Shown piece by piece: positions 32,971 through 60,188 of a stretch of 64,000 bases of DNA. A program made the position numbers and the translations under genes. Under the pieces are notes generated by a model, which made no database searches, was not told where the DNA came from, and saw nothing but the letters and a program-made list of their open reading frames with translations. Position 1 is the stretch's first letter, and every line of letters begins with the position of its first letter. Source of the DNA: an uncultured Bacteroidales bacterium. Its GTDB lineage: Bacteria; Bacteroidota; Bacteroidia; Bacteroidales; VadinHA17. The stretch is taken from the NCBI GenBank assembly GCA_963813405.1, contig CAWEYU010000004.1:392769-456768 (forward strand), read 5' to 3'.

Positions 32971-34359
32971 AACTTGTATAAGACTCTGTATTCTTTCAAT
33001 CTGAAGCTGTTTGTTTACTTCACGCAAACTTCTTGCTGTATTTGTAAAATATTGATGCCCGGTTATAAATTTAACCTGTATCTTATTCCAGTCGTTCAAT
33101 GTGCCGATCTTATTCTGCGCTTTCAGTTCCTCGTACAAAGTGTTGGAAACCGGTATGAAATCACTTCGCCCCAGGTAATCCAGGTCTGAATCACAAATTA
33201 TTTCTTCAAGAAGGTTGGTTGGCTTTGGAGGGAGCTTGGTTGACATAATTATTTCGCAGATCCGATCAATCTGTCCGGAAGTATAATTAAACTTCGGAAG
33301 CATCTCCCTCGCCAGCAGGGTACCATAATACTCATGATTGTCATATGCCACAGTGTGACCTGCATCGTGGAAAAGGCCGGCAGTTTTAAGCAGAAGTATC
33401 TCCTCATCACTGCAGCCTTCACCCCAGCCAATGAGCTCAACCTCGGTTACAACGTCTACTGTATGTTTCACATTATGGTAAAACAGGTTTTCAGGAAGTT
33501 CCTTTTCAAGCTTATCGAGTATTATTTCCTGGATATCAGTAAACTGGATAAGTCCGAATTTTATTCTGAATGACGAATTAGGTGTTTGTCCATCTTCGTT
33601 TTCAGAATATTCCGGTTTTATCCCCTTCACTCTGTACATCTGCAGATCGCCCTTATATTTTACAGGAAGCTTTCCAAAATATTCACAATCAAAAAACTCC
33701 TTTATAAGCTCATATGTCATCACTGAAATAAGAATGATCCCATTTTCCGAAACAGCCTCAATCCTGCTGGCAGTGTTAACCGTATCGCCTTTAATATCAT
33801 AAGTGATCTTTTTCTTTCCTGTAATTGAAGCAGTCACAGGTCCGGTGTGTATCCCAATTTTTAATTCCCAGATACGGTTTTCAATCCCCCGTTTCTCTCT
33901 TTCATACTTTTCGAGGAAATTTCGCATCTCAATTGCAGCCATCACTACATCAATGGGATTAGTGATATTCTTTTCAGGAATACCTCCTGCACACATGTAT
34001 GTGTCGCCGATCGTTTTAATTTTCTCAATTTTATATCTGCTGGAAATAATATCAAATTCATAAAGGATTTCATCAAGCTCATCCATAATAATAGTTGATT
34101 CCAGACCTTCAATAAGCTTTGAAAATCCGTGAATGTCAGCGAAGAGAACTGTGGTCATATTAAATTTCAATGACCTTTCTTTTCCCTCTTTTGCTAACTC
34201 TGCTGGCACCTTTTCGCTGACAGATCTGAATTTCTCAATATCCCTGGTCAGCTTTTCATTTATTTTCTCAAGTTTCTTTAATTGCTCCTCAAGATCCTGG
34301 TTTTGCTTAGCAAGCTTTGAAATCCGTTTTACAAGTTCTTCGTTATTGATAGCGATCAT
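32968..34359 (-). CDS. Soluble class III (adenylate-type) cyclase fused to an intact HD-domain phosphohydrolase
   Basis: N-terminal coiled coil; FADIHGFS, EKIKTIGDTYMC, YDIKGDTVNTASR; HD motifs YHNVKHT, LFHDAGH, NHE, CDSDLDYLG. Confidence 0.88.
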   Translation of the reverse strand: MIAINNEELVKRISKLAKQNQDLEEQLKKLEKINEKLTRDIEKFRSVSEKVPAELAKEGKERSLKFNMTTVLFADIHGFSKLIEGLESTIIMDELDEILYEFDIISSRYKIEKIKTIGDTYMCAGGIPEKNITNPIDVVMAAIEMRNFLEKYEREKRGIENRIWELKIGIHTGPVTASITGKKKITYDIKGDTVNTASRIEAVSENGIILISVMTYELIKEFFDCEYFGKLPVKYKGDLQMYRVKGIKPEYSENEDGQTPNSSFRIKFGLIQFTDIQEIILDKLEKELPENLFYHNVKHTVDVVTEVELIGWGEGCSDEEILLLKTAGLFHDAGHTVAYDNHEYYGTLLAREMLPKFNYTSGQIDRICEIIMSTKLPPKPTNLLEEIICDSDLDYLGRSDFIPVSNTLYEELKAQNKIGTLNDWNKIQVKFITGHQYFTNTARSLREVNKQLQIERIQSLIQV

Positions 34360-36862: not shown

Positions 36863-37477
36863 ATGCATATAGCAATTGCCGGTAATATAGGATCCGGAAA
36901 AACAACACTCGCGGGTTTACTTGCAAAACAATATGGATGGGTGCCCCATTATGAAGATGTTGATGATAATCCTTATCTGAATGATTTTTACGAGGATATG
37001 CAACGGTGGTCTTTTAACCTTCAGATCTTTTTTCTAAACTCACGGTTCAGTCAGATACTCGATATAAGAAAATCCGATAAGACAATTGTCCAGGACAGGA
37101 CCATATATGAAGATGCGTACATTTTTGCACCAAACCTTCACTCAATGGGCCTGATGTCTACCAGAGACTATGATAACTATTTTACTTTATTCAAACTGAT
37201 GAGCTCCCTTATTCAGCCTCCTGACCTGATGTTGTATCTAAGGGCTTCTGTCCCCACCCTGGTAAATCAGATCCAGAAACGTGGCCGTGACTACGAAAGT
37301 TCAATAAGAATTGACTATCTCAAGAGACTGAATGAGAGGTATGAGGCATGGATAGAAACATATACTCTCGGAAAATTGCTTATTATTGAGGCTGATCATT
37401 ACAATTTTCCAAATAACAAGGACCATTTGAGTGAAGTCATCGATAAAATAAACGCTGAACTGCACGGACTGTTTTAA
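36863..37477 (+). CDS. Deoxynucleoside kinase
   Basis: IAGNIGSGKTT P-loop, QDRTIYED, IQKRGRDYE. Confidence 0.93.
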   Translation: MHIAIAGNIGSGKTTLAGLLAKQYGWVPHYEDVDDNPYLNDFYEDMQRWSFNLQIFFLNSRFSQILDIRKSDKTIVQDRTIYEDAYIFAPNLHSMGLMSTRDYDNYFTLFKLMSSLIQPPDLMLYLRASVPTLVNQIQKRGRDYESSIRIDYLKRLNERYEAWIETYTLGKLLIIEADHYNFPNNKDHLSEVIDKINAELHGLF

Positions 37478-46305: not shown

Positions 46306-48468
46306 TCAGTTTTTTGGAAGAGGAAGGTTCATTTTCTTACAAATGGCAATGAACCTGGGATTCCCGAACAGGGTATCATAAAAATGACCCGATCTGGCAA
46401 TATATGTCATTATCGGATCATGTAATTCAAATCCCTTTTCAATCCAGTCCATGGCTTTATCAGGTTGATTCGCTATAATGTACCTAACAGCCATTTCAGA
46501 AAAACCAATGTAATTGTTTTCAGCATATTTCTCCAAATGTTTCATTATTTCTTCATATGCTTTAGCAATTCCTGATTCGCTGTAAATTCTCTCTATATCC
46601 TTAAAAGCATCTTCTTCAATTTTAATTGGGAGTGAGTATTTTACCACTCTGATTACTTTGTCGTAATCCTTACTCTTGTATGCGGCTATTTCAAGCATTC
46701 CATTAATATTGATGTCCTCTGGATTAGTGGCCAACCACTCTTCCATGAGAGACAAGCTGGTCTTGAAATCACCTGCTTGCACCAGTGTCCCTATATACAT
46801 AAGCTTAGCAACAGGATTTAACGGATCGAGGCTGATTGCAAGCTCTCTCTGCGCCAATGATTCATCGTCCCTGTCCAGGATCAATAATAACTGTGCATAC
46901 ATCAGCCTGCAGAGGGCATTGTTGGGATTAATAGCCAGAGTCTTTAAGAACTCTTTTTCACTCTTTTCCCAGTTCCATTCCACCAATTGAGCAATCACGG
47001 CATTCTGATAATGAACTTCAGCAAGATCCGGATCCAGTGCCATCGCTTTATTAAGATTCTCGGTGATTTTTGGACCGGCAACAGAAGGTTGTTCCCACCC
47101 CGCTTGCTGTATCCATATCCAGACCTCTGCCAGACCTGCATAGAGAGGTGCCCAGTCAGGATTTTTCTCAATGGCACTGTTCAGATATTCTAGGGCTTTA
47201 TTCAACGATTCCCTCATGGGGTCAGTCAAATATGAGCGGGCCTTCAGATATTCATTATATACTTCAAGATCTGCGGCCGGAACTTTTTCAATAAGCTTTC
47301 TCTCGTCAGGGGATATGACAGCTTTGAGCTCTTTAGCTATTGATTCTGCTATCCGTATTTGGATATTAAAAATATCTTCAACTCCATTGATTTTTTGCTG
47401 GAACGACTCCCCCCAGAGATGTGACTCATGCTTTGCCATGATCAGTTGTACCCTCAGGCGAAATGAACTACCATATTTCTGCCCGCTGCCTTCCACAATA
47501 TAATTCACCCCAAGTTCTCTTGCGATCTCAGGAATTGATTTTGTCTGATTCCGGTACTGTTCAACTGAAGTACGGGAAATAACCCTGAGATCTTTAACCG
47601 TCTGCAGATTGGTAAGTATCTCTTCCATGACACCATCCATGAAGTAGGTGGTTGAATCATTAGGGCTGTCGTTTACGAAAGGTAAAACAGCTATTGATTT
47701 TTCAAGCAGTTCTTTTGGTTTGATTAGTTTTGGAAAGATGAAATACCCGGCCACAATTAATACCAACAATATTAAAGCGCCAATAATGATCTTCGTTCTA
47801 AAGTTTTTCCTTAATGAAGATTTTTCTTCTTTAATTACTAATGAGATCTTTTCCCCCTCCCTGTCTGGATTTTTTAATCCTGTAATAATCTCTTTAACGG
47901 CATTGGCTACCTTGTTGATCTGATTCCGGTAATAAGTTTTATTTAGATTATTATCCGGATGATCTTCATTAGACAAGAGAGGACGGTTCACTCCGGGTTC
48001 CTTGTAAATGAATTCAATTCCTCTTAAGAATCCTCCAAGTTCACTTTCAACAAGCTTCCTGTCTTCTGCATCAAGTTCGTGTATCTGAACGGGAAGTACA
48101 CGATTTGCCACATTGCCACCGGGAAGTTTAATCTTTAAGCCAAACTGATCGTATGATGCCTGTTCAATAAATGCCTTAAACTCATGTTCCCACGCGAATG
48201 ATTTCGGATCGCAATAAGTTCGTGAGATTATTGGAATGAATAAAAGACACTTGAGTTTCACCTTAAGTGATGCATCTACATCATGTGTCTCCAATAGTCC
48301 GTCGTGTGGATTAATATCAAAGTAAACACTGATTTCCTCTTTAAAGGTAGATTCGAGTTCCGTCTTCAGAGCATCAACAAACTCACTAACCCACCTGTCG
48401 CCTTTATTGTCTTTCTGACGGTAGCTGATGAAAATGTCGTAATTATAGCCTTCTAAAATGCTTGACAT
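46306..48468 (-). CDS. TIR - TM - TolB_N-like - TPR protein (paralog 1)
   Basis: YDIFISYRQKD...FIPIISRTYCDPKSFAWEHEF (TIR-like, Glu retained); TM IIIGALILLVLIVAGYFIF; SIAVLPFVN...LRVISRTS...GVNYIVEGS; TPR helices; start aligned to its paralogs (ATG 48468). Confidence 0.8.
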   Translation of the reverse strand: MSSILEGYNYDIFISYRQKDNKGDRWVSEFVDALKTELESTFKEEISVYFDINPHDGLLETHDVDASLKVKLKCLLFIPIISRTYCDPKSFAWEHEFKAFIEQASYDQFGLKIKLPGGNVANRVLPVQIHELDAEDRKLVESELGGFLRGIEFIYKEPGVNRPLLSNEDHPDNNLNKTYYRNQINKVANAVKEIITGLKNPDREGEKISLVIKEEKSSLRKNFRTKIIIGALILLVLIVAGYFIFPKLIKPKELLEKSIAVLPFVNDSPNDSTTYFMDGVMEEILTNLQTVKDLRVISRTSVEQYRNQTKSIPEIARELGVNYIVEGSGQKYGSSFRLRVQLIMAKHESHLWGESFQQKINGVEDIFNIQIRIAESIAKELKAVISPDERKLIEKVPAADLEVYNEYLKARSYLTDPMRESLNKALEYLNSAIEKNPDWAPLYAGLAEVWIWIQQAGWEQPSVAGPKITENLNKAMALDPDLAEVHYQNAVIAQLVEWNWEKSEKEFLKTLAINPNNALCRLMYAQLLLILDRDDESLAQRELAISLDPLNPVAKLMYIGTLVQAGDFKTSLSLMEEWLATNPEDININGMLEIAAYKSKDYDKVIRVVKYSLPIKIEEDAFKDIERIYSESGIAKAYEEIMKHLEKYAENNYIGFSEMAVRYIIANQPDKAMDWIEKGFELHDPIMTYIARSGHFYDTLFGNPRFIAICKKMNLPLPKN

Positions 48469-48513
48469 CAAAGGTCTATTTAATTCATAATCAAAATCAT
48501 AATCTTGGTCCAA

Positions 48514-50679
48514 TCAGTTTTTTGGAAGAGGAAGGTTCATTTTCTTAATAATGTCAATGAACCTTGGATTGCTGAATAAAGGATCAAAGGAACACATCCT
48601 GGTCGTTATATAAGGCATCCCTGGATCGTGTATTTCATATCCCTTTTCAATCCAGTCCATGGCTTTATCAGGTTTATTCGCCATAATGTATCTTCCTGCC
48701 ATTTCTACAGGAGAATAGGGATTATTTTCATCGATTTTCTCCAAATGGATCATTATTTTCTCAAATGCTTTGATAAAACCCTCTTCGTTGAAAATCCTTT
48801 CAATTGCTTTAATATCATCTTCTTTAACGCTAAATATGGAGAGGATATAGCTATAAGCTTTAATTACTTTATTGTATTCTTTACATTGAAAAGCTGCAGA
48901 TAAAATACAATTATTTGCAATAAAGTTCCGCGGATCATCAGCCAATACCTTTTCCATCTGAATCAGAGCATTTTGACAATCACCGAGACATAATAACGCT
49001 GCTGCATATTGTACCTGTAACAAAGGATTCTTTGGATCGAGGTCGATCGCCATGTTGGCCTGCATTAGTGCTTCACCAGGCCGCTGCAGGCTGCTTAATA
49101 ACTGTGCATATATTACCCTTGCGAAGGCATTATTCGGATTAATGGCCAGGGCTTTCAATAACTCCTTTTCACTCTTTTCCCAGTCCCACTCTTGCAAGAA
49201 AGCCATCTCTCCGCTCATAAACCTGGAATCAGAATTATCCGGATCCAGTTCAAGTGCTTTATTCAGGTTTTCAAAGATCTTCGGTCCGGCAACTTGCGGT
49301 GTTTCAAAACCCATTTGAGCGATTGATGCCCAGACCATAGTCAGTCCCGTATAGAGAGGCGCCCAGCCAGGGTCCTTTTCCACAGCATGGTTCAAATATC
49401 CCAAAGCTTTCATCAACGATTCCTTGTCAAGATCCTCCAGAAAGTAAAGACCTTTGAGGTAATTGTCGTAGGTTTCAAAATCAATTGTATGTATTTTCTC
49501 GATAAGTTTTTTCTCATCAGGAGACATAACTGCGCTTAATTCATTAGCAATTGCCTCGGCAAAACCTGACTGGGCTTTAAAATATTCTCTCATGTCAAGG
49601 TTTTCCTGTTCAAACGAGTTCCCCCAAAGATGTCTTTCATTCCTGGCTGCTATTAACTGAACCCTCATCCGTAATGAATTGCCTGATTTCTGGCCGCTCC
49701 CTTCTACAATATAGTTTACGCCTAACTCCTTTGCTATCTCTGAAATTGATTTATCCTGCCCACGAAATTGCTCTGCCGAGGTTCGCCCGAGAACTCGCAA
49801 AGATTTTACAGATTGAAGTTTATTCAGAAGCTCTTCCATTACACCATCCATAAAGTATTGAGTAGAATCCTCCGGGCTATCATTCCTGAAGGGTAGAACA
49901 GCAATAGATTTTTCGATTTCTTTTTTTAAGAAGTTTGTTTTTACTATGACAAAGACGACAGCCAGTACAATTATCAGAGAGAGGGAATATATCAGAACCT
50001 TTTTTGTTTTATTACGGGTTTTTTCTTCAGGAAGTGTTAGTTTAATAACTTCCTTTGGCTCGCTTTCAAATTCCAATGGTTCTCCTTTCAATCCGCTGAT
50101 ATTCTCTTTTATCGCATTGGCAACCTTATTAATCTGATCCCGGTAGAAGGTTTTGTATTGGTTTTTTTCAGGATAATCAGATGGAGTTAATGGTCTGTTT
50201 ACTCCTGCTGACTTATAAATAAAGTCAATACCACGAACTACTCCTCCTAAAACAGATTCACATAGTTTGATGTCAGTGTTCTCTAAATCGTAGATCCTTA
50301 TTGGAAGTACTCTGTTGGCAACATTTCCATTAGGAAGTCTTATTTTCAACCCAAATTGATCATTTGAAGCTTGTTCAACAAATGCTTTAAACTCATTTTC
50401 CCAGGCAAAGGATTTTGGATCACAATAGGTGCGAGAAATGATGGGGATAAAGATAAGGCACTTCAGTTTATCCTTGATTGAGGCATCAACATCATGAGTC
50501 TCAAGAAGCCCATCGTGCGGATTGATGTCAAAATAAACGCTTATTTCTTCTTTGAATGTCGCCTCCAGCTCCTTCTTCAGGTTGTCAACAAATTCTGTTA
50601 CCCAACCGTCATATTTATTGTCTTTCTGACGGTAGCTGATGAAGATATCATATTCGTAACCAGGAATGAGGCTTGACAT
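48514..50679 (-). CDS. TIR - TM - TolB_N-like - TPR protein (paralog 2)
   Basis: Same architecture; SFAWENEF; TM VLIYSLSLIIVLAVVFVIV; ends KKMNLPLPKN like paralog 1. Confidence 0.8.
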   Translation of the reverse strand: MSSLIPGYEYDIFISYRQKDNKYDGWVTEFVDNLKKELEATFKEEISVYFDINPHDGLLETHDVDASIKDKLKCLIFIPIISRTYCDPKSFAWENEFKAFVEQASNDQFGLKIRLPNGNVANRVLPIRIYDLENTDIKLCESVLGGVVRGIDFIYKSAGVNRPLTPSDYPEKNQYKTFYRDQINKVANAIKENISGLKGEPLEFESEPKEVIKLTLPEEKTRNKTKKVLIYSLSLIIVLAVVFVIVKTNFLKKEIEKSIAVLPFRNDSPEDSTQYFMDGVMEELLNKLQSVKSLRVLGRTSAEQFRGQDKSISEIAKELGVNYIVEGSGQKSGNSLRMRVQLIAARNERHLWGNSFEQENLDMREYFKAQSGFAEAIANELSAVMSPDEKKLIEKIHTIDFETYDNYLKGLYFLEDLDKESLMKALGYLNHAVEKDPGWAPLYTGLTMVWASIAQMGFETPQVAGPKIFENLNKALELDPDNSDSRFMSGEMAFLQEWDWEKSEKELLKALAINPNNAFARVIYAQLLSSLQRPGEALMQANMAIDLDPKNPLLQVQYAAALLCLGDCQNALIQMEKVLADDPRNFIANNCILSAAFQCKEYNKVIKAYSYILSIFSVKEDDIKAIERIFNEEGFIKAFEKIMIHLEKIDENNPYSPVEMAGRYIMANKPDKAMDWIEKGYEIHDPGMPYITTRMCSFDPLFSNPRFIDIIKKMNLPLPKN

Positions 50680-50799
50680 TTGAAATGTTTGTCAGATAAA
50701 GTTATGAAAGAGAAAGTTACTATTCAAATATAATAAGTAAGTGATTCATTTTTTGGAATATTGATAATTATCTTCTTTATCATCAAAAGTTACTTTCTC

Positions 50800-50841
50800 T
50801 GGTTGCAACTTTTGTCCGTTTGGGGTCCCGAACGGGACAAA
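50800..50841. repeat. GGTTGCAACTTT motif followed by an imperfect hairpin
   Basis: TGGTTGCAAC then TTTGTCCGTTTGGG-GT-CCCGAACGGGACAAA; GT and GGGG at the same spacing as in the larger repeats. Confidence 0.6.
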
Positions 50842-50920
50842 CTGTTTGCTTCCCTAAAATCCAGTTCAATAAAAATTACAATTTCGAAAACCGCTTTTTA
50901 TCATAAAAAAGTCTTTCATC

Positions 50921-51087
50921 TGGTTGCAACTTTCAGCGGTCAGGGGAGCAGAAAAAAGAGTGAGAGCGAGAGCGAGTATTCTCACTTCTTTTTTTGACTC
51001 ACTGCGTTCGTCGAGCTCACCCCGATAAATCGGGGTTCGGTTCTCGAGACTCACTCCCACACTCACTCTATTGGGGTGGTTGCAACT
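50921..51087 (+). repeat. Conserved intergenic element, copy A (att-like head plus long imperfect hairpin)
   Basis: TGGTTGCAACTTTCAGCGGTCAGGGGAGCAGAAAAAAGAGTGAGAGCGAGAG...inner ACCCCGATAAATCGGGGT...ACTCACTCCCACACTCACTC...TGGTTGCAACT. Confidence 0.8.
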
Positions 51088-51108
51088 ATTAATTTGCCTT
51101 TGTTTCAA

Positions 51109-51135
51109 TAAAAAAGGCCCCGCGATGGAGCCTCT
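51109..51135 (-). terminator. Probable intrinsic terminator of the Gly-rich protein gene
   Basis: Minus strand AGGCTCC-ATCGC-GGGGCCT followed by a T-run. Confidence 0.55.
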
Positions 51136-51164
51136 TGTATCAAAGTATTATTAAGGTCTAAAGA

Positions 51165-51734
51165 TTACTTCTTGTCATAAACCCTTTTGGTGGTAGTTGG
51201 ATCTCCCCCATTAAATCCAGGTCTGGTTGAAGTAATAGTAAGAGTACTGGCGTCAGCAAGTGTCCAGACCTCAGTAATTTTCATTGTCTGATCATTAAAG
51301 GTCCTGGTTGTGACAATCGTTAGAGATTTGCCATCTGCTGAATATGTAGCAACTGATGGCACCTTCATTGGGTCTCCCCCGCCGAAACCAGGAGTAGTGT
51401 TTATACTTTCCTTCCCGTCAAGAGTATATTTCATAGTTGTGGTCACTGGTGTGCCGTCCTGTCCGGTTCTTGTTGTTGCAACAGTAAGAAGGTTGGCTTC
51501 CTGCGTGGCAACAATATTGCCCCCGCCAAAACCTCCACGTCCGCCACCGCCGCCGCCACCACCGGCAGGGGGTTGAGTGCTTTTTGAAGCATTATAGGTC
51601 CAGTTACCGGCGAAATTAGCTTTCCCCTGTGCATTTGTCATTGCAGGCAATAAGAATGCCAGGATAACAGTTAAGGATAATATCCGCAGAATGCCTGTGC
51701 GGGTAAAACCAAAATTTTTTACATTTTTTTCCAT
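51165..51734 (-). CDS. Secreted hypothetical protein with poly-Gly linker (beta-rich, possibly lipocalin-like)
   Basis: Signal peptide ending TNA-Q, NFAGNWTYNASKS, GGGGGGGGRGGFGGG, YTLDGKES; TATCTTTG box on the minus strand at 51777-51784. Confidence 0.7.
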   Translation of the reverse strand: MEKNVKNFGFTRTGILRILSLTVILAFLLPAMTNAQGKANFAGNWTYNASKSTQPPAGGGGGGGGRGGFGGGNIVATQEANLLTVATTRTGQDGTPVTTTMKYTLDGKESINTTPGFGGGDPMKVPSVATYSADGKSLTIVTTRTFNDQTMKITEVWTLADASTLTITSTRPGFNGGDPTTTKRVYDKK

Positions 51735-52082
51735 AATCAATTAATTTAACTTGTTGCTTTTATAAAGAGCGTTTATCAAAGATATTTATTCTATTTCAAA
51801 TTTGGACTCTAGTAAGCCAAAAATATAATAATAGTTCTAAAGTGTTAATTGTAGACCCCACTATCAATCACTGGCGCTGAAAGCGGATGAATCTAAGCCA
51901 CTATCATATTATTGTATAGAAGTGGATGAAGGTTCGCTTGTTCAGGTAGCAAGTGAGGATGGTAACATTTTCGACATGAAGCCACAGTGATGAAGGCAAC
52001 ATCAAATTTTCTTCCTGGTTTTAAACAAGTTAGATTAAATCGAGAGATTTTTGTTCACCTATTCAGCGAAATTTGAAAAAAC

Positions 52083-52180
52083 CAGTTGCAACTTTCAGAA
52101 GTCAGGGGAGCAGAAAAAAGAGTGAGAGTGAGAGCCTGCCTGCCAGCAGGCAGGCGAGAGCGAGCACTCTTACACTCAAC
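52083..52180 (+). repeat. Conserved intergenic element, copy B
   Basis: CAGTTGCAACTTTCAGAAGTCAGGGGAGCAGAAAAAAGAGTGAGAGTGAGAG with inner perfect hairpin GCCTGCCTGC-CA-GCAGGCAGGC (52134-52155). Confidence 0.8.
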
Positions 52181-52233
52181 GCATCAGCTCGCGGGATTCC
52201 ATTACTACAACAATAGGTATTGTTCCATTTTGG

Positions 52234-53493
52234 TTATGCCGCAGGGATATAAATATCAAACTGTGCACCTCTATTTAATTCACTTGTTGCGATGATGATA
52301 CCGTTGTGGTTTTCTACTATTTTTTTTACTATGGCAAGCCCGATCCCCGTTCCTCCGTATAAGTCTTTGCTGTGAAGTTTTTGGAAAACTTCAAAAATAC
52401 GTTCACTAAAATGGGATTCAAAGCCTATGCCGTTGTCTTTGACAGTGATATGGCAATAATTTTTTTCGGATGAAAGCTTTTCGATATTCAAATTTATGCC
52501 CTTTACAATCCTGCTCTTTATTGTAATATGTGATGGTATATCAGGATTTGAAAATTTGAGTGCGTTGCTTATCAGGTTATACATGAGCTGGCGAAACTGA
52601 AAAGTGATGATATTGGCAGAACATAGTTCGGTAGCTTCAATTGTTGCATTCTTTTCCTGAATAGTATCTTTCAGTTCGGTTTTTACTTCTTCAATAATTA
52701 TATTTAGCTCTGTTTTTTCAAACTTATGATCGGTAGTGTTGATGCGGGAGAAGGCAAGTAAATCGTCGATGAGTTGCTGCATTCTTTTTGCTGCTAATTG
52801 CATTCGCTGGAAACTATATTTGCCGTTATCAGATAGATTTTTATCTTCATTTTCAAGTATGATCGATACGAAGGTTTGAATTTTTCGTAATGGCTCCTGC
52901 AAATCGTGACTTGATATATAAGTAAATGCCAATAACTCTTTATTAGCAATGCTTAACTCTGCTGCCCGCTTTTCTTTCTCTTCGTTTTGAAAGGCAAGTT
53001 CTTTATTTGCAATGATTAACTCTGCTGCCCGCTTTTCTTTCTCATCATTTTGAAAGACAAGCTCTTTGTTTGCGATGATTAACTCTGCTGCCCGCTTTTC
53101 TTTCTCATCATTTTGAAAGACAAGTTCTTTGTTTGCGATGATTAGCTCTGCTGCCCGCTTTTCTTTCTCATCATTTTGAAAGACAAGTTCTTTGTTTGCA
53201 ATGATTAGCTCTGCTGCCCGCTTTTCTTTCTCATGATTTTGAAAGACAAGTTCTTTGTTTGCAATGATTAACTCTGCTGCCCGCTTTTCTTTCTCATCGA
53301 CTTGAAAGACAAGTTCTTTGTTGGCAATGCCTAATTCTGCGGCCCGTTTTCCTTTCTCTTCTTTTTGAAACGCAAGTTCTTTGTTAACACTGATTAATTT
53401 TGCTAACAGTTTTTCATTCTCTTCTTTTTGAAGGGCAATTTCTTTGTGAGCAATAATTATCTCATCCTCATCTGATTCTTTTCTTTTAGTCAT
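52234..53493 (-). CDS. Cytoplasmic histidine kinase with N-terminal 21-aa coiled-coil repeats
   Basis: SHDLQEPLRKI H-box, NLISNALKF, VKDNGIGF, IFEVFQKLH, GTGIGLAIVKK; no TM or PAS recognised. Confidence 0.92.
   Translation of the reverse strand: MTKRKESDEDEIIIAHKEIALQKEENEKLLAKLISVNKELAFQKEEKGKRAAELGIANKELVFQVDEKEKRAAELIIANKELVFQNHEKEKRAAELIIANKELVFQNDEKEKRAAELIIANKELVFQNDEKEKRAAELIIANKELVFQNDEKEKRAAELIIANKELAFQNEEKEKRAAELSIANKELLAFTYISSHDLQEPLRKIQTFVSIILENEDKNLSDNGKYSFQRMQLAAKRMQQLIDDLLAFSRINTTDHKFEKTELNIIIEEVKTELKDTIQEKNATIEATELCSANIITFQFRQLMYNLISNALKFSNPDIPSHITIKSRIVKGINLNIEKLSSEKNYCHITVKDNGIGFESHFSERIFEVFQKLHSKDLYGGTGIGLAIVKKIVENHNGIIIATSELNRGAQFDIYIPAA
52935..53430. repeat. 63-bp (21-aa, EKEKRAAELIIANKELVFQND) tandem repeat, 7 clear units plus degenerate ones
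   Basis: RAAEL codons at exact 63-bp spacing between 52957 and 53346; outer boundaries approximate. Confidence 0.92.
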
Positions 53494-53623
53494 ATTTTTT
53501 CCCGATAATGTAGTTTTGTTTTAAAATTGAGGTTTAAAGGGAATTTTGGAATTGCTGTAAATATTTCTTCAGCTTAATTACTTTTTTATCCTGTCAGAGG
53601 CGTGACTAAATAATTACAATGTT

Positions 53624-54070
53624 TCACACAGTGATGACAAACTTTTCTCTTGTCGGTTGTGAAATAGTATCTTGCACTATAGCTACCAGCGATTGTTGAA
53701 TTATTATTTTGAATTGTGAAAAGTCTGAAGGCTTGCGAATGAAATATTGCGCACCGTTTTTGTACAGTAGGTTAACAACTTCCTTTTCAAAGGAGGTTGA
53801 TAAGATGATCACGGGAAGTTCTTTCAGCATTTCATTTTTTTTTATCTCAGATAAACATTCGAAACCGTTTTTTCGGGGCATATTAAGATCGAGGAAAAGG
53901 ATATGAGGAAGTTCGTTTGTTTCATTATTCAGTAGTTGCATGAGTTGTTCTCCATCATAAACGGTCGTAAGTTTGGTGGATAACAGCAATTCCCCCAGTG
54001 CTTCTTTGAAAAAAATGCAATCGTCAATATCGTCATCTGCAAGTAATATATTCAAGTGTTTTAAATTCAT
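53624..54070 (-). CDS. Single-domain response regulator
   Basis: ILLADDD, LFLDLNMPRKNG, ILSTS, FIRKP. Confidence 0.92.
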   Translation of the reverse strand: MNLKHLNILLADDDIDDCIFFKEALGELLLSTKLTTVYDGEQLMQLLNNETNELPHILFLDLNMPRKNGFECLSEIKKNEMLKELPVIILSTSFEKEVVNLLYKNGAQYFIRKPSDFSQFKIIIQQSLVAIVQDTISQPTREKFVITV

Positions 54071-54510
54071 GCGTTAAGGATATATTTTAGCGGGCTGTTT
54101 GAAAATATTTTTTCAGTAGCTATAGGAAGCGCATGATAAATAACCTGTTTGAGTTGCTCAAAATCACCTGGCTTATGAATATAAACATTAGCACCGATCT
54201 TGAAGACAATGCCTATCATGTCTTTCGAGTTTGATGTTGAAAGCAAAACCAGAGTAAGGTCTTTCAGATTTATATTTTGTTTTATCTCTGATAAACATTC
54301 TATGCCGTTCTTGCGGGGCATGCTAATATCCAGAAAAAGAATATCAGGAAGATTTTTGGTATTCTCGAGAAGGTAATTCATGAGTTGTTCTCCGTCATGA
54401 ACAATTGTAAGATGAGTTACAACTAGCAATTCTTCCAATGCCTTTTTAAAAAAAAGGCAATCGTCAATATCATCATCTGCCAGCAATATATTCAGTTGTT
54501 TTAAATTCAT
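54067..54510 (-). CDS. Single-domain response regulator
   Basis: ILLADDD, LFLDISMPRKNG, LLSTS, YIHKP. Confidence 0.92.
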   Translation of the reverse strand: MNLKQLNILLADDDIDDCLFFKKALEELLVVTHLTIVHDGEQLMNYLLENTKNLPDILFLDISMPRKNGIECLSEIKQNINLKDLTLVLLSTSNSKDMIGIVFKIGANVYIHKPGDFEQLKQVIYHALPIATEKIFSNSPLKYILNA

Positions 54511-54568
54511 GCATTTAAGGTATTGCGTAATTGATTGTTTTTAAATCATTCTTGCCGTTTTGTATATG

Positions 54569-55024
54569 TTAATCATAAATTTTCCCTTTGGCCATCAAGT
54601 GAATATTTTTCCCCACCAAGATAATCGTATTGTGAATGACCTGTTTGAGTTGTGCAAAATCCTCAGACTTACGAATGTAATCATACGCACCAGTATTCAG
54701 GAGTATCTTTATAATTTTCTCTTCATAATTCTTGTCCTGTGGGAAAGAGGTTGAAAACATGATCACAAGCAGATCTTTCAACTTTTTATTTTCTTTTATC
54801 TCTGTTAAACATTCGAAACCGTTTTTCCGGGGCATGCTAAGATCGAGAAAAAGAACATCAGGAAGATTTTTGGAATTCTTGAAAAGGTAAGTCATAAGTT
54901 GTTCTCCGTCATGAACAACTGTAAGATGAGTTGGAATGGGTATTCCCTTTAATGCTTTATCAAAGAAAGAACAGTCGTCAGTATCGTCATCTGCAAGCAG
55001 TATATTCAATTGATTTAATTTCAT
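54569..55024 (-). CDS. Single-domain response regulator
   Basis: ILLADDD, LFLDLSMPRKNG, MFSTS, YIRKS. Confidence 0.9.
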   Translation of the reverse strand: MKLNQLNILLADDDTDDCSFFDKALKGIPIPTHLTVVHDGEQLMTYLFKNSKNLPDVLFLDLSMPRKNGFECLTEIKENKKLKDLLVIMFSTSFPQDKNYEEKIIKILLNTGAYDYIRKSEDFAQLKQVIHNTIILVGKNIHLMAKGKIYD

Positions 55025-55510
55025 TTTTTAAATTTTCAAATATTTTTGACAATTAGTAATTAATGGCACTTTGAAGCCTGATTTTTAAACTTGCCGTGTC
55101 ACGAAAATGGACAGATTTTATATTGGACTATCCGTTTTCAGATAAATGGGATTTGTAATCGATAAAAAACTAGCTTTCGCACTGCAAGAAATGCATCTTT
55201 TAATAAAAAAGTGTTACACAATTGTACCCATAACTTACATAATTCACATATTTAGTTCATCTCTGGTCTGTCGGTTTGATTCATGATTTCATTCACGCGG
55301 GTAAGATGTTGATTGCAAAAGCTGTATACCCTGACCACATGCAGCCGCGAATTTTAATACTAAGATATATTACAATATTACTATTTAGAACCTGTTATTT
55401 ATGGTCAAGATTCCCCTGACAAATGTGTTCAAAGTGCCTGGCTTTTATAGTGGTAAATGATTCTTGCTATCTCATTTATAACCTGTATTAATTATCGGAA
55501 GTTTTGTAAC

Positions 55511-55652
55511 TGGTTGCATCTTTCAGTAGTCTGGGGAGCTGAAAAAAGTGTGAGAGTGAGAGTGAGTGTGAAAACACGAACGAACAACTCACTCTTTTTT
55601 CCTCGCTTCGTCCTTCGTAGCTTTAGCGGAGAAGGACTCTCACTCTCACACT
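55511..55652 (+). repeat. Conserved intergenic element, copy C
   Basis: TGGTTGCATCTTTCAGTAGTCTGGGGAGCTGAAAAAAGTGTGAGAGTGAGAG...inner GTCCTTC-GTAGCTTTAGCGGA-GAAGGAC...CTCTCACTCTCACACT; CTGGGGAGC is identical to tRNA-Asn 45993-46001. Confidence 0.8.
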
Positions 55653-55763
55653 ATTTTTATCAAAGGGTTCTGCAGTCTGATAGTCTGAGAGTCAGCAGGG
55701 AAATTGAAATAAATTTGAATTGTATCCTGCACTTTACTAACTTTATCACAATGAACAGCTAAT

Positions 55764-58148
55764 ATGCCAAGCCTCATCCCCGGATACAAATACGACATCT
55801 TCATATCCTATCGCCAAAAAGACAACAAAGGTGATCGCTGGGTTAGTGAGTTCGTCGAAGCACTGAAAACAGAACTTGAATCAACTTTTAAAGAAGAGAT
55901 CATCGTTTATTTTGATATTAATCCTCACAACGGTCTTTTAGAAATACATGATGTTGATGCCTCGCTAAAGGAGAAACTCAAATGCCTCGTCTTTATTCCA
56001 ATTATTTCGCGAACATATTGTGACCCAAAGTCATTTGCCTGGGAGCATGAATTTAAAGAATTTGTTGAACAAGCTTCTAATGATGAGCTTGGTATGAAAG
56101 TAAAACTGCCTGACGGAAATGTCGCCAGCAGGGTTTTGCCGGTTAAGATTCATGACCTCGATCCTGAAGATAAAACTCTTTTAGAAAATGAGTTAGGTGG
56201 TGTACTTCGTAGTATTGAGTTTATATATAAAGAGGCTGGAGTGAATCGTCCTCTGAAGCCAAATGATGATCCGAAAGAAAACCTGAATAAGACCAATTAT
56301 ATAAACCAGATCAATAAGGTTGCAAATGCAGTTAAGGAGATTATTACAGGTCTACACCAGTATGAAGAAAAAAATGAAGAAGCGCCTAAAGAAATTTCTA
56401 AACCAGAATTTGTCCCACAAAAAAAGAACAAAACAAAAATCCTTTTTGGGTCAATTATAGCGTTGGTATTGATAGTTTCAGGCTTGTTATTAATTCCCAA
56501 ATTATTTAAATCAGAAAAACAGATTGAGAAAACTATAGCAGTTTTACCATTTAGAAATGATAGTCGTGATATAGAAAACCAGTATATCATTGATGGGACT
56601 ATGGAGGCTATTCTGGACAACCTGTGCAAAGTTGCTGACCTTACTGTAATATCCCGAACCTCAGTTGAGCAATTCAGAAATACAACCAAACCTATCCCTG
56701 AAATAGCAAAAAAACTAAATGTCAATTATATACTTGAAGGGAGCGGACAGAAATACGGCGACAATATTCGTTTAACTGTCACGTTAATTGATGCTGCAAA
56801 TGACAAACAGATCTGGTCCTCCCCTTATGAAGGTGTAACAGATAATATCTTTAGATTACAAAGCCAGATTTCAGAAGCAATCGCATCCGAATTGAAAGCA
56901 ATAATTTCACCCGAAGAAAAACTTCTGATTGAAAAGGTACCAACTAAAAGCTTGATAGCATATAATTTATTTACTCAGGCCAGGAGCGAACACATGAAAT
57001 TCTGGTCGGACAATAAAAATATAACTGGTCTTAAGAAGGCTTTGATCCTGTATAAACAAGTACTGCAATACGATTCCACATATGCACAGGCTTATTCAGG
57101 CCTTGCCCTGGGGTATCTTAATAAAAGAGCTGTTCAGACTAACCTTAATACGAATTTTTTGGACTCGGTTAAATTTTATGCTGACAAAGCGATAAGTTGC
57201 AATGACAGACTGGATGAAGCTTTTTATGCAAGAGCGATTTATTACGATAGTAAAGGAGATTATGACAAATCCCTGAAGGATTGCAACACAGCCATTGAGA
57301 TTAATCCAAATTATTCTTCGGCATACTTTGCCAGAGGAACATTAAATTTGGTTAAATATTGGGATACCTATAATGCCTTTGAGGATTTAATAAAAGGTAC
57401 TCAACTCGAACACGGTCCGGATCGTCCAGGAAGAATGAGGACTTTAGGAGATCATTTTAAAAATTTTGGTTTTCCCGAAATCAGCAGGTATTATTCTGAA
57501 GAGGCATTTAAACTTGATACTGATACAATACTTTATTTCAATGCAATTGCGGGTTTGGAAGAATTCCAGGGAGATGCCATAGCTGTCGAATTTTACAATA
57601 AAGTTTTAGGAACAGATCCTTCCAACCTGACTGCTTTAATAAGAAGTCTTATTTGCTATGAACGATTAGGTAAGTACGAAGAGGCATATCGATCAGCTAA
57701 CAATATTATTCGGATATATGATAAAACTGGCTTGTCGCCTCAATATAACTGGGAATATATTGGGTATGCTTTTTTGAAAACAGGACACATAAAAGAAGCC
57801 AGATATTATTTTGACAAGCAGATAGACATATGTCAGGGAATACTAAAGTCAGATCCAAATACCGATGAAAGTATTTATCCTCTTATCTGTGTGTATTCTG
57901 CCCTTGGAGAATATAACAAAGGTCTTCAATGGTTAAATACACTTAATGAAGGAATTTTAGAACGTATTAAGAAAGGAAGAGTTATAGCTTCAAAAAATTT
58001 TCAAAATTATCTTAAATATGATCCACTTTTGGAGAATCTCCGCAGTGATTCTATGTTTATAAGAATACAGAAAGATCGGGCAGTAACATACAATATTACA
58101 CACGAGAAAGCTAAGGTCTGGTTAAAGGAGAAGGGTATAATAAAATAA
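55764..58148 (+). CDS. TIR - TM - TolB_N-like - TPR protein (paralog 3)
   Basis: YDIFISYRQKD...SFAWEHEF; TM ILFGSIIALVLIVSGLLLI; TIAVLPFRN...VISRTS...NVNYILEGS; divergent TPR region. Confidence 0.8.
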   Translation: MPSLIPGYKYDIFISYRQKDNKGDRWVSEFVEALKTELESTFKEEIIVYFDINPHNGLLEIHDVDASLKEKLKCLVFIPIISRTYCDPKSFAWEHEFKEFVEQASNDELGMKVKLPDGNVASRVLPVKIHDLDPEDKTLLENELGGVLRSIEFIYKEAGVNRPLKPNDDPKENLNKTNYINQINKVANAVKEIITGLHQYEEKNEEAPKEISKPEFVPQKKNKTKILFGSIIALVLIVSGLLLIPKLFKSEKQIEKTIAVLPFRNDSRDIENQYIIDGTMEAILDNLCKVADLTVISRTSVEQFRNTTKPIPEIAKKLNVNYILEGSGQKYGDNIRLTVTLIDAANDKQIWSSPYEGVTDNIFRLQSQISEAIASELKAIISPEEKLLIEKVPTKSLIAYNLFTQARSEHMKFWSDNKNITGLKKALILYKQVLQYDSTYAQAYSGLALGYLNKRAVQTNLNTNFLDSVKFYADKAISCNDRLDEAFYARAIYYDSKGDYDKSLKDCNTAIEINPNYSSAYFARGTLNLVKYWDTYNAFEDLIKGTQLEHGPDRPGRMRTLGDHFKNFGFPEISRYYSEEAFKLDTDTILYFNAIAGLEEFQGDAIAVEFYNKVLGTDPSNLTALIRSLICYERLGKYEEAYRSANNIIRIYDKTGLSPQYNWEYIGYAFLKTGHIKEARYYFDKQIDICQGILKSDPNTDESIYPLICVYSALGEYNKGLQWLNTLNEGILERIKKGRVIASKNFQNYLKYDPLLENLRSDSMFIRIQKDRAVTYNITHEKAKVWLKEKGIIK

Positions 58149-58247: not shown

Positions 58248-60188
58248 ATGTGGTCAGATATTTTATATAACAATGACAATCTATCGGTTAATAACGCACT
58301 AGCTGACAGAAAAAAATATAAGAAATTCTTTACTGACACTATTGCAGAAGGACTTTTTAAAGATTTGAGGCGATCGGGTGACACCATTCTGATTTTTGCT
58401 GCTTCAGACAAAGATTTTGAAGATCTCACAAAAGCTGAAAAAAATTTCTGGCTCTCGTATGCTTCTGAGATTCCGGATAAATTCAAAGCAATAAATCTTT
58501 TCATCCGGCCATTCAGGGATTTTTGCAGAACTTGTTTAATAACTGATAATGAGATCGCAACATTTATAAGGTTTGATCTTGAAAAACATTTCATTAATAC
58601 AGAACAGGCAGGTTTAAAAAGCAAGTATCTAACTGATAAGAAATCTTTTCCGCACAGTAATAAAGACATCAATCGTTTCTTCCTGGAAATTAACTACTTA
58701 ATACCGTTGCAGCTAAAAAAGATCGGGTATGAGGTAATCAGGCATGAGGAAGCTGCAGAGATTAATATGCTCATGGTCAAAAAACTGGCAAGAGCAATAC
58801 ATACAGGTTACCTGAATGAAATCAGGAACCAGGACATAAGGGCAGATCATTTTTTTTACACTCCGGAAGATTACCCGAATAAGTATTCATCAGATTTTGA
58901 TGATCTTCCTGAGGAGATTAAAAACTCTAACCTGGATAATGCCGCCCATATTCCAACTAAAATGTTATCAATCGGGTACAAGATCAGACAGGTCGAAAAA
59001 GGGTATAAACCATATGCCCTTCATCTCGATGAAGCTGAAATTGAAACAATGGCAATAGTGGAACATTTGAGATGGAGCTGGGAAAAGAGGTTAAATGGCT
59101 GGATCCTGGGCAGCGTTAAAGATAGTGTAAAGAAAACCCATCCAGACTTAATCCCGTATCAGGAACTGAGTGAATCAGAAAAAGATAAGGACCGTCAGCT
59201 GGTAAAATTAATTCCGTCATTATTACAGGATATTAAGTTCGAAGCTTACCCTGTTTCGCCAAACCGGATAAGTAAATTATCTTACGCGATTAAACCTCAG
59301 AGCAGCATTCATAAAATTTTAGATGAAACCAGGGCATTAAACGATCAGATCAGAAAACTGGTAACACTGACTCCGGAAATTGAAGAAATTGTCGCGATAA
59401 GGAACAAGATGATTGAAGAGGCGATCAATGAGGTTGAGGAGAATTATAATTATGCTCAGCATATTCAGGAAACTTACCTGCCGGATGATCATGCAGTCAG
59501 AGAATGTTTTCCTGACAGTTTTATATTATTCAAGCCAAAAGACATTGTCAGCGGGGATTTCTATTTCTTCAGCAAGCATAGAGATTTAATTATATTTGCC
59601 GCTGCCGATTGCACAGGGCATGGGATCCCGGGGGCACTGCTGAGCACTCTGGGATACGGAATCCTCGACCAGGCTGTAAATGAAATAAATCTTACTGATC
59701 CATCTCTCATTTTACATCATCTTTATTCCAAAATACACAGGTTTCTCCGTAATGATGAGGCGGGGGCAGGACTCTCAGACGATCTGGATATTATCCTCTG
59801 CACTCTGGATATCAGGACCAATTTACTGACATATGCCGGGGTTAAAAATCCATTATACTGTATAACTAATTCCGAACTGGTGGAATACCGGGCAAAGATC
59901 TTCCCTGAAAATTGCATTGAGGGAGCAGACTGCAAGTTTACTTCAGAGAAAATCCAATTAAATCCGGGTGATACAATATACTTATGCTCTGATGGTTATG
60001 CAGATCAGTTTGGCGGAAAAAACCACAAAAAATATCAAACAGGAAAATTGAGAGACTTTTTACTTGGCATTAACGAAATTCCAATTCCTGAGCAATGCGA
60101 CAAATTATACGAGGAGATCACGATGTGGATTGAAGAAAATGACGAGGATCAGACTGATGATATCCTGATTATTGGCATCAGATTATGA
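58248..60188 (+). CDS. RyR-domain SpoIIE/PP2C-family protein phosphatase
   Basis: RyR motifs LARAIH, FDDLPEEIKNSN, MAIVEHLRW...NGW..G..KD..KKTHPDLIPYQELSESEKDKD; PP2C motifs VSGDFY, ADCTGHG, SDGYADQFGG, QTDDI. Confidence 0.82.
   Translation: MWSDILYNNDNLSVNNALADRKKYKKFFTDTIAEGLFKDLRRSGDTILIFAASDKDFEDLTKAEKNFWLSYASEIPDKFKAINLFIRPFRDFCRTCLITDNEIATFIRFDLEKHFINTEQAGLKSKYLTDKKSFPHSNKDINRFFLEINYLIPLQLKKIGYEVIRHEEAAEINMLMVKKLARAIHTGYLNEIRNQDIRADHFFYTPEDYPNKYSSDFDDLPEEIKNSNLDNAAHIPTKMLSIGYKIRQVEKGYKPYALHLDEAEIETMAIVEHLRWSWEKRLNGWILGSVKDSVKKTHPDLIPYQELSESEKDKDRQLVKLIPSLLQDIKFEAYPVSPNRISKLSYAIKPQSSIHKILDETRALNDQIRKLVTLTPEIEEIVAIRNKMIEEAINEVEENYNYAQHIQETYLPDDHAVRECFPDSFILFKPKDIVSGDFYFFSKHRDLIIFAAADCTGHGIPGALLSTLGYGILDQAVNEINLTDPSLILHHLYSKIHRFLRNDEAGAGLSDDLDIILCTLDIRTNLLTYAGVKNPLYCITNSELVEYRAKIFPENCIEGADCKFTSEKIQLNPGDTIYLCSDGYADQFGGKNHKKYQTGKLRDFLLGINEIPIPEQCDKLYEEITMWIEENDEDQTDDILIIGIRL

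Follow-up and report, generated by a model that had tools for sequence, protein, structure and literature searches.

A bacterial protein family joining an N-terminal TIR domain to a CadC-like sensor, with gene linkage to a RyR-domain phosphatase

Results

Three paralogues with a conserved N-terminal domain

The window analyzed here is a 64,000-nucleotide (nt) stretch of DNA from an uncultured Bacteroidales bacterium (VadinHA17; assembly GCA_963813405.1, contig CAWEYU010000004.1, positions 392,769–456,768 of the forward strand), the genome of which comprises 16 contigs and 3.54 Mb at a completeness of 92%. Three paralogous genes in this window encode the proteins P0001, P0002, and P0003, and the third is followed by the gene for P0280, a PP2C phosphatase that carries a ryanodine receptor (RyR) domain (Table 1). 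A preliminary description of the stretch had assigned to the three proteins a conserved N-terminal domain of ~200 amino acids (aa) resembling the TIR (Toll/interleukin-1 receptor) domain, and all three open reading frames (ORFs) are indeed present. Their heads are near-identical, as shown by the translated motifs MxSLIPGYxYDIFISYRQKDNK and FIPIISRTYCDPKSFAWExEF, and in each protein the head is followed by a Lys/Arg-rich linker, a hydrophobic 19-mer, an alpha/beta part opening with KSIAVLPF, and tetratricopeptide repeats (TPRs), in this order. A genome-wide count gave seven paralogues at four loci, rather than three. The TIR parts of the seven share a mean identity of 72%, and that of P0003 is 64–80% identical to those of its paralogues.

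Table 1. Features of the window and related genes elsewhere in the same genome (positions are those of the window unless a locus is named).
Feature	Position	Strand	Description
Paralogue 1 (P0001, 720 aa)	46306–48468	−	TIR ~47869–48468; predicted transmembrane helix ~47734–47790; CadC-like alpha/beta + TPR sensor down to 46309
Paralogue 2 (P0002, 721 aa)	48514–50679	−	TIR 50080–50679; Lys/Arg-rich linker; predicted transmembrane helix 49942–49998; predicted periplasmic sensor 48517–49941
Paralogue 3 (P0003, 794 aa)	55764–58148	+	TIR 55764–56363; predicted transmembrane helix ~56439–56495; longer divergent TPR sensor to 58145
RyR-domain PP2C (SpoIIE-type) phosphatase (P0280, 646 aa)	58248–60188	+	RyR ~59040–59207; PP2C ~59589–60182; Pfam RyR 50.9 bits, SpoIIE 61.2 bits
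Unknown 191-aa ORF	51165–51740		Between the tandem pair and paralogue 3
Histidine kinase (HisKA + HATPase_c), then three stand-alone receivers	52234–55024	−	Separates the tandem TIR pair from paralogue 3
Giant ORF (1851 aa)	8215–13770	−	SprB repeats; PKD/Ig domains; CHU_C type IX secretion signal
Giant ORF (2644 aa)	14606–22540	−	No Pfam match at E<=1e-5; in a GC-richer stretch (0.46–0.48)
Class III cyclase, Y_Y_Y-cyclase (621 aa)	27989–29854	−	
Class III cyclase, cyclase-HD (463 aa)	32968–34359	−	
AraC-type HTH + transmembrane helix + sensor (668 aa)	L092, 940–2946	+	Own genome
DUF4145-like head + sensor (633 aa)	L091, 781–2682	−	Own genome; no transmembrane helix; PADLOC candidate PDC-M16A, E 2.6e-6

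The longest ORF of P0001 runs from 46306 to 48513 on the minus strand and opens with TTG at 48513. The true start is most likely the ATG at 48468 (MSSILEGYNYDIF) instead, because the paralogues all begin at the equivalent ATG. Elements resembling TAnnTTTG (TAAATTTG, TATATTTG), which we take to be the Bacteroidetes -7 promoter motif, lie 25–60 nt 5' of the start codons of the paralogues, for example at ~55715, ~50720, and ~48500, and a near-identical leader, ATGAATTAAATAGACC, occurs in three paralogues. These features suggest that the paralogues may each be transcribed from a separate promoter and that the leaders probably arose by duplication together with the genes. A search of sequencing runs listed no RNA run, and DNA runs only at a small share (<=0.18). 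An ORF of 101 aa that abuts paralogue 3 (55457–55762) is probably spurious, because it has no family match and overlaps the promoter-like element (TAAATTTG) that precedes paralogue 3.

The N-terminal domain has a TIR fold

In Pfam searches with the whole proteins, only TPR families scored above the cut-off. The head was not recognized by NCBIfam, and the public names of its relatives are "hypothetical", "TolB-like protein" (a JGI label), "adenylate cyclase", and "TPR protein". In the Pfam TIR_2 scan (PF13676), all seven paralogues gave weak matches of 13–16 bits (13 bits for P0001) over the same profile region, positions 1–65/77; the single canonical TIR_2 gene of the genome scored 78 bits in the same scan.

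The AlphaFold model of the P0002 head, built from an alignment of 61 sequences, has a predicted local distance difference test score (pLDDT) of 87.6 and a predicted template modelling score (pTM) of 0.82. In a Foldseek search with this model, ranks 1–32 were all TIR domains (best E 2.3e-5), including those of RUN1, L6, BtpA/TcpB, AbTir, MyD88, SARM1, and TLR5, and the first non-TIR entry, an azoreductase, stood at rank 33. Structural alignment with VIA-align gave the TIR-APAZ protein of SPARTA at Z 13.6 (root-mean-square deviation 2.8 over 136 residues) and RUN1, IL-1RAcP, AbTir, MyD88, and SARM1 at Z 11–13, and all of the 50 listed entries were TIR domains. In the ESM Atlas, 22 of the 30 clusters nearest to the head are TIR_2 or TIR. 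In addition, a profile of 19 family sequences was compared by hhalign with a profile of 26 canonical TIR_2 domains from genomes of the same order, and the two aligned from strand A through strand E (112 columns) with an E value of 5.9e-6 and a moderate probability of 85%. The alignment with one canonical TIR (that of the L008 protein, below) covered the first strand only, at 18.6%.

These results indicate that the cytoplasmic N-terminal ~200 aa of these proteins is a complete TIR fold, since four independent lines agree: the weak TIR_2 matches in all paralogues, the model and its fold searches, the hhalign comparison, and the ESM Atlas neighbors. The fold proposed in the preliminary description thus holds. 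Relative to TIR_2, the head is ~60 residues longer than a canonical TIR, and in the model the additional elements are an insert after helix C, built as a pair of short strands, one further strand, and a long helix at the end.

For the catalytic position, Glu96 is invariant in 61 of 61 and in 19 of 19 aligned family sequences, and in the hhalign comparison it aligns with the near-invariant Glu of the 26 TIR_2 domains. The glutamate that had been placed at the TIR catalytic position is therefore probably Glu96, at the start of helix C; this equivalence rests on the profile alignment and on invariance.

Several observations weigh against these assignments. The isolated head scored only 15.9 bits (E 0.018) against TIR_2, below the 28-bit cut-off, and a profile search of PDB sequences with the head returned only the TIR domain of flax L6, at E 0.68. 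The Trp-to-Glu spacing in the head is 3 residues, and typical TIRs have a spacing of 4. An ungapped match to plant TIRs would set the variable Glu94, and not Glu96, at the catalytic position.

A TIR fold could also act as a non-enzymatic scaffold, in which clustering recruits a cytoplasmic partner by contacts between TIR domains or between the TIR and other domains, without any nucleotide, as in the TLR/MyD88 pathway. The very strong, surface-wide conservation of the head would fit such a role, the TIRs of MyD88 and IL-1RAcP are among the structural matches (Z 12–13), and soluble double-TIR relatives (the TIR + DUF4062 form, below) could serve as adaptors. Against it stand the invariance of the aligned Glu, the NADase-type TIRs of RUN1, SPARTA, AbTir, and SARM1 as the top structural matches, the fact that the only other TIR gene of the genome itself encodes a membrane protein, and the nucleotide-contact residues retained in the RyR domain of the linked phosphatase. 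We therefore consider a purely scaffolding TIR improbable.

A single membrane helix and a CadC-like sensor

In the Kyte-Doolittle scan, P0001–P0003 each contain one 19-mer with a score of 2.9–3.2 at residues ~226–246, every other window scores at most 1.4, and no N-terminal hydrophobic signal was found. The 15 residues before this helix contain 5–6 Lys/Arg and those after it 4, so that the upstream flank is slightly more positive. The absence of a signal peptide, the Lys/Arg-rich segment, and the single hydrophobic helix had all been described, and each is borne out.

The model of the P0002 ectodomain (475 residues, pLDDT 94) consists of an alpha/beta subdomain followed by some twelve pairs of helices. 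Over its first ~334 residues, Foldseek matched it to the complete CadC periplasmic domain of E. coli (TM-score 0.63–0.67). In VIA, the sensor aligns with the CadC periplasmic domain at Z 20.6–21.1 over 297–310 of 322 residues, which is 4–5 Z units above generic TPR hits, at a sequence identity of 10–12%. The NCBIfam models CadC and HilA align weakly with the sensor. The match to Pfam TolB_N (PF04052) is sub-threshold (E 0.14; score 12.7 bits, cut-off 22.4 bits; profile positions 14–101 of 106). Therefore, of the TolB_N-TPR ectodomain originally proposed, the alpha/beta and TPR composition stands, and the TolB_N label is better replaced by that of a CadC-type periplasmic sensor.

The sensors are much more variable than the head: among the seven paralogues the mean identity is 40% for the alpha/beta subdomain and 27% for the TPR part, and the TPR part of P0003 is only 20–23% identical to those of its paralogues.

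The same genome encodes a homologue in which an AraC-type helix-turn-helix (HTH) domain, a transmembrane (TM) helix, and the sensor are joined (Table 1), with 39% identity over a 226-residue sensor query. Because the AraC-HTH head of this protein must be cytoplasmic, it supports an N-in/C-out topology, and because in P0001–P0003 a single 19-residue helix with a Kyte-Doolittle score of ~3 lies between the head and the sensor, these are expected on opposite sides of the membrane. The N-terminal head, a large folded domain without a signal peptide, also fits this topology. P0001–P0003 are thus predicted to be N-in/C-out proteins with a single TM helix and a C-terminal periplasmic sensor.

This topology is not uniform in the family, and the exceptions count against it as a general property. 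The 690-aa paralogue on contig C14 lacks the TM helix and so does not have a CadC/ToxR-type topology, and 13 of the 108 examined representatives with an alpha/beta sensor subdomain (from the set of 150 described below) likewise lack it. At least 12 database homologues of 688–694 aa also lack the TM helix but keep a closely similar sensor; in the C14 paralogue, the identity to P0001/P0002 is 61–78% in the alpha/beta subdomain and 52–64% in the TPR part. Since the TM-less members keep a similar sensor, the sensor module works on both sides of the membrane across the family. The proposal of N-in/C-out membrane receptors is accordingly upheld for P0001–P0003 by the helix, the CadC-type sensor, and the AraC-HTH homologue, and falls as a statement about the whole family, including one of the seven paralogues.

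The TM-less members are also the main argument for a different view, namely that the proteins do not sense the outside at all, that the helix is a tether or dispensable, and that the CadC-like/TPR module is a cytoplasm-facing regulatory or autoinhibitory domain for an intracellular ligand or protein. The weak NCBIfam alignment with HilA, which is cytoplasmic, and the absence of a TM helix from the protein of the same genome with a DUF4145-like head and a sensor (Table 1) point in the same direction. However, a single strongly hydrophobic helix separates the two folded domains, the best structural match, CadC, is a bona fide periplasmic domain, the AraC-HTH homologue requires an N-in/C-out arrangement, and the helix is kept in 126 of the 150 representatives. 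Taken together, these observations make a purely cytoplasmic role of the sensor in P0001–P0003 very hard to credit.

A large, patchily distributed, and modular family

An exhaustive HMMER search with the head identified 1165 cluster representatives at E<=1e-3, 521 of them at E<=1e-30. The architecture was examined for the best 150 representatives, some of which are truncated by contig ends. In all but two, the head is N-terminal; the heads are 60–85% identical to the query, and the total length ranges from 275 to 1001 aa. A TM helix follows the TIR in 126 and the alpha/beta sensor subdomain is present in 108: both occur in 95 representatives, the sensor without the helix in 13, the helix without the sensor in 31, and neither in 11. 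A Pfam scan of 30 of the 42 representatives that have no alpha/beta subdomain showed that the other partners are diverse, with PD40 propellers in 8, TPRs only in 7, an FGE-sulfatase domain in 3, NB-ARC/NACHT/nSTAND3 together with TPRs in 2, DUF6272-SiaC in 1, a cyclase N-terminal to the TIR in 1, and nothing in 8.

Conversely, the sensor is found with other heads. Near-identical TM and sensor parts are attached to a Ser/Thr kinase (P0088) and to a head of ~140 aa that is weakly DUF4145-like (E 0.22), and the same sensor module occurs with the AraC HTH in this genome and with a class III cyclase. The earlier statement that the module is also fused to cyclases, kinases, and HTH domains is thereby confirmed. 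DUF4145 is presumably HEPN-like; the assignment of the alternative head to DUF4145 is itself weak.

The distribution is patchy. The family was found in 4 of 151 reference genomes from the order and in 7 of 401 from the phylum, and a single genome has as many as 7 copies. In 50,697 phage records, tblastn with the TIR found nothing, and among 72,556 plasmid records a single one, a Hymenobacter plasmid, matched.

A second kind of membrane TIR protein is encoded in the same genome (L008, 1–1839 on the minus strand; G000:C4, ~145–147 kb). Its head is a canonical TIR_2 domain (74.8 bits), and the protein further contains a single hydrophobic segment, a weak match to PEGA, and an FGE-sulfatase domain; its TIR part matches the SAVED_TIR model of PADLOC. 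The predicted design of TIR, TM helix, and ectodomain is thus found again in a TIR clade unrelated to that of P0001–P0003.

Linkage to a RyR-domain PP2C phosphatase

The gene for P0280 lies on the strand of paralogue 3, begins 99 bp beyond it, and is the only RyR-domain gene of its genome. No terminator-like hairpin was found between the two genes, and two follow P0280. In a genome of the same genus (G125), the one RyR gene lies ~4–6 kb from two TIR-family genes. On genome contigs, a TIR-family gene was found at one of three RyR-PP2C loci, at a distance of 4.2 kb. On metagenome contigs, such a gene is present at 20 of 51 RyR-PP2C loci, always downstream and in 19 cases on the same strand. For the 27 informative metagenome loci, defined as those in which the downstream sequence extends for 1.5 kb or more, a TIR-family gene was found at 19 (within 5 kb) and within 400 bp at 13. 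The linked TIR genes mostly encode forms of ~810 aa with a TM helix and an alpha/beta subdomain, and the association persists for phosphatase homologues down to ~51% identity.

At the metagenome loci, two further genes recur: a DUF6272-SiaC gene lies immediately upstream of the RyR-PP2C gene in 40 of the 51, and a divergent ABC exporter is present in 36. One representative of the TIR family, P0133, is a direct fusion of the TIR with DUF6272-SiaC. The order in the window, TIR gene before phosphatase gene, is the reverse of the common order, and the pair kept across the rearrangements is therefore the TIR and the RyR-PP2C. The genome encodes 12 SiaC genes, none of them in the window. An orthologue of the ABC exporter (63% identical) is found at G000:C6:102998-106655, beside a 132-aa SiaC-only gene that is 70% identical to the C-terminal half of DUF6272-SiaC, and neither a RyR-PP2C nor a TIR gene follows. 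This pair resembles a broken remnant of the module present in relatives.

A contig labelled as a Chloroflexota metagenome-assembled genome (L102, JBLNAO010000339.1) carries the full module of TIR receptor, ABC exporter, DUF6272-SiaC, and RyR-PP2C. Every other example of the module is in Bacteroidales-type DNA, and a binning error or horizontal transfer could explain this one.

RyR-domain (PF02026) proteins of phages bind or cleave the cyclic ADP-ribose (cADPR) isomers 2'cADPR and 3'cADPR, according to a 2026 preprint (PMC13232231). The preprint gives H75, W78, H100, and D117 as the ligand contacts of the phage protein RyDEP and as conserved across the RyR family (PMC13232231). In P0280, H273, W276, H298, and D315 have a spacing identical to that of these four residues and do not vary among the homologues aligned (4 of 4). 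The RyR domain of P0280 could therefore be a reader of a TIR product.

The linkage has clear limits, which reduce its weight as support for a functional pair. Only one of the seven paralogues adjoins the RyR-PP2C gene, and among the four class-level genomes that carry the TIR family none has any RyR gene. Eight of the 27 informative loci have no TIR gene, and the window contains neither the DUF6272-SiaC gene nor the ABC gene of the usual module. The linked loci are related Bacteroidales-type sequences, and shared synteny therefore inflates the counts. Furthermore, the residue match between P0280 and RyDEP was made by numbering and spacing rather than by alignment.

Genomic surroundings and the question of defense

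The preliminary description had placed the paralogues in an accessory island, and this is not supported: the GC content of the region (0.35–0.40) lies within the range of the whole window (0.35–0.48), and the neighbors are housekeeping or signaling genes. A defense island in the region is rejected, as PADLOC gave no support for one. None of the 9 flanking ORFs scanned by PADLOC between 51165 and 63302 matches; among 4 ORFs between 36863 and 45843, 3 have no match and one (36863–37477, plus strand) matches VakA weakly (E 3.6e-9). For P0001–P0003 themselves there is no convincing match, the only row being one for the TPR region of P0001 (16.4 bits, E 7e-4), and they are thus not catalogued in PADLOC. 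The neighbors in the window are M16 peptidases, an oxidoreductase, a PfkB kinase, the histidine kinase with three receivers, the RyR-SpoIIE phosphatase, a beta-lactamase-family protein, and an AraC regulator. At all four loci in the genome the neighbors are housekeeping or signaling genes, and none is common to the four. In other genomes, family members are flanked by receivers, receiver-cyclases, cyclase-TPR and cyclase-FGE proteins, and kinases.

The span from the first to the third paralogue (46306–58148) also carries unrelated genes, namely the 191-aa ORF, the histidine kinase, and the three receiver proteins. The 191-aa ORF is unrelated to a 188-aa ORF that adjoins another paralogue in the genome, and receiver and receiver-cyclase genes also adjoin TIR-family members in two other genomes. 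Elsewhere in the window, PADLOC gave partial mad2 matches at 1749–2549 (plus strand, E 4e-15) and 6275–7222 (plus strand, E 5e-10), covering ~120 residues of a 492-position model. The two class III cyclases both match PADLOC PycC weakly, probably through general cyclase homology.

A soluble form of ~532 aa, in which the TIR (57% identical to that of P0002) is joined to DUF4062, adjoins nSTAND1 NTPases of ~1350 aa at five loci in other genomes (L069, L071, L072, L076, and L081), and in L081 the NTPase bears WD40 repeats. The same two-gene layout occurs on a Hymenobacter tibetensis plasmid (NZ_CP094670.1, 737–6651; L093), where the 1440-aa neighbor is annotated as "hypothetical protein". Of all observations, these loci hint most strongly at an immune-type role for the clade. 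At a further locus (L077), a cyclase protein replaces the TIR protein beside the NTPase.

P0001–P0003 might likewise be immune or abortive-infection sensors, in which a sign of envelope or periplasmic attack, such as a phage or a contact-dependent toxin, leads the TIR to deplete NAD+ or to make a death signal in the manner of Thoeris, TIR-STING, SPARTA, and TIR-NLR proteins. The paralogues would then form an innate receptor repertoire, along the lines of the preliminary description. The nSTAND1-linked forms, on the plasmid as elsewhere, agree with this, as do the fusions of the same TIR clade to NB-ARC/NACHT/nSTAND3 and TPRs in 2 of the 30 scanned representatives, the multiple copies with very variable sensors, and the near-identical sensor on the weakly DUF4145-like head, a related protein of the genome being the PDC-M16A candidate of Table 1. 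Three of the 30 have FGE-sulfatase/CLec ectodomains, a type proposed as antigen sensors in an earlier study (PMC10907252).

Conversely, the PADLOC scans of P0001–P0003 and of the flanking genes in the 37–64 kb region gave nothing convincing apart from the one weak VakA match, the neighbors at all four loci are housekeeping or signaling genes, and no phage record and only the single plasmid record match. The head is 57–85% identical to that of P0002 across the best 150 representatives and the nSTAND1-linked form, with diverging sensors; defense effectors are as a rule far less conserved than this. The linkage of the family is to a phosphatase and partner-switch module, not to a killing effector, and shifts the likely role from defense towards signaling. 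On balance, an immune function of P0001–P0003 appears rather unlikely, but it is the main alternative to a signaling role.

Discussion

Comparison with known systems

The nearest counterpart of P0001–P0003 in overall design is the CadC/ToxR type of regulator (E. coli CadC; PDB 3LY7, 3LY8, 3LY9, and 3LYA), which likewise has a cytoplasmic N-terminal output, one TM helix, and a periplasmic C-terminal sensor of the same fold. In P0001–P0003, however, the output domain is a TIR and not a winged-helix DNA-binding domain, in agreement with the Pfam search, which found no HTH family and hence no OmpR-type head in the three proteins, and the sensor is extended by ~140 residues of TPRs.

With the enzymatic TIRs (RUN1/L6/RPP1, SARM1, AbTir, SPARTA, and ThsB), the head shares the fold (Z 11–13.6), a box-1-like strand YDIFISYRxxD, and the aligned conserved Glu; unlike them, it falls below the Pfam cut-off, is ~60 residues longer, and is fused through a TM helix to a predicted periplasmic sensor. 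In contrast to Thoeris, no gene for a ThsA-type effector (SIR2/SLOG, Macro-TM, and others) adjoins P0001–P0003, and PADLOC gave no convincing match.

The Toll-like and IL-1 receptors of animals likewise cross the membrane once, with a solenoid or ligand-binding part outside the cytoplasm and a TIR within it, and they too form a multi-copy repertoire. P0001–P0003 differ in that the TIR is N-terminal, there is no signal peptide, and a CadC-like and TPR ectodomain takes the place of leucine-rich repeats or Ig domains. The likeness is therefore one of design only, and nothing indicates that the proteins as a whole share an ancestor.

For the phosphatase, two systems are relevant. SiaABCD of Pseudomonas aeruginosa comprises the PP2C phosphatase SiaA, the kinase SiaB, and the phosphoprotein SiaC. 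The resemblance lies in the coupling of a PP2C to a SiaC-family gene at 40 of 51 related loci and in the one relative that fuses the TIR to DUF6272-SiaC, and the differences are that the phosphatase here bears a RyR domain, that no SiaC gene is adjacent in the window, and that no diguanylate cyclase partner was seen. Phage RyDEP resembles P0280 in the Pfam RyR domain and the four equally spaced ligand-contact residues; it is reported to be a small anti-Thoeris glycosidase or sponge (PMC13232231), whereas the RyR domain of P0280 lies within a 646-aa cellular PP2C as a putative sensor module.

The combination of an N-terminal TIR with C-terminal TPRs is already on record in bacteria (PMC7075850). 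In the open-access and bioRxiv literature (supplements aside), no description was found of a TIR that a TM helix connects with a periplasmic sensor of the CadC type, of the TIR clade of P0001–P0003, or of its linkage to RyR-PP2C and SiaC, in agreement with the earlier remark that no characterized system of this architecture was known.

Proposed mechanism

We propose, at about even chances, that the proteins are one-component receptors in which the TIR is the output and signals into a RyR-phosphatase partner switch. P0001–P0003 would be bitopic receptors of the CadC/ToxR kind in which a TIR replaces the DNA-binding head. A ligand outside would alter the oligomeric state and bring the TIR domains together; it is established that oligomerization switches on the NAD+ chemistry of the TIR in SARM1, plant TNLs, AbTir, and SPARTA. 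The associated TIRs would then process NAD+ to a nucleotide derived from ADP-ribose, probably a cADPR isomer, and the RyR domain of P0280 would bind this nucleotide and change the dephosphorylation of a partner-switch protein of the SiaC type. Seven sensors, one conserved TIR, and a single RyR reader would in this way form a network with many inputs and one messenger. If the receptors have one messenger in common, this would account for the much higher conservation of the head compared with the sensors.

A broader reading, that this is a housekeeping, non-immune TIR second-messenger pathway in Bacteroidota, running from many receptors through a cADPR-type nucleotide to RyR-PP2C and a SiaC switch, is more tentative, and we regard it as possible, if doubtful.

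Significance

Bacterial TIR domains are now studied almost only as phage-defense enzymes or as effectors that subvert a host. The proteins described here belong to a large unannotated family in which a conserved TIR would be the cytoplasmic output of periplasmic sensors, and they raise the concrete question of whether TIR-made nucleotides serve in ordinary bacterial transmembrane signaling, with the RyR phosphatase as a candidate cellular reader of these nucleotides. The family may offer a prokaryotic precedent both for the layout of Toll-like receptors and for the pairing of cADPR with a RyR domain. If the broader, non-immune reading is true, the pathway would represent a bacterial counterpart of cADPR-to-ryanodine-receptor signaling and a new class of one-component transmembrane output.

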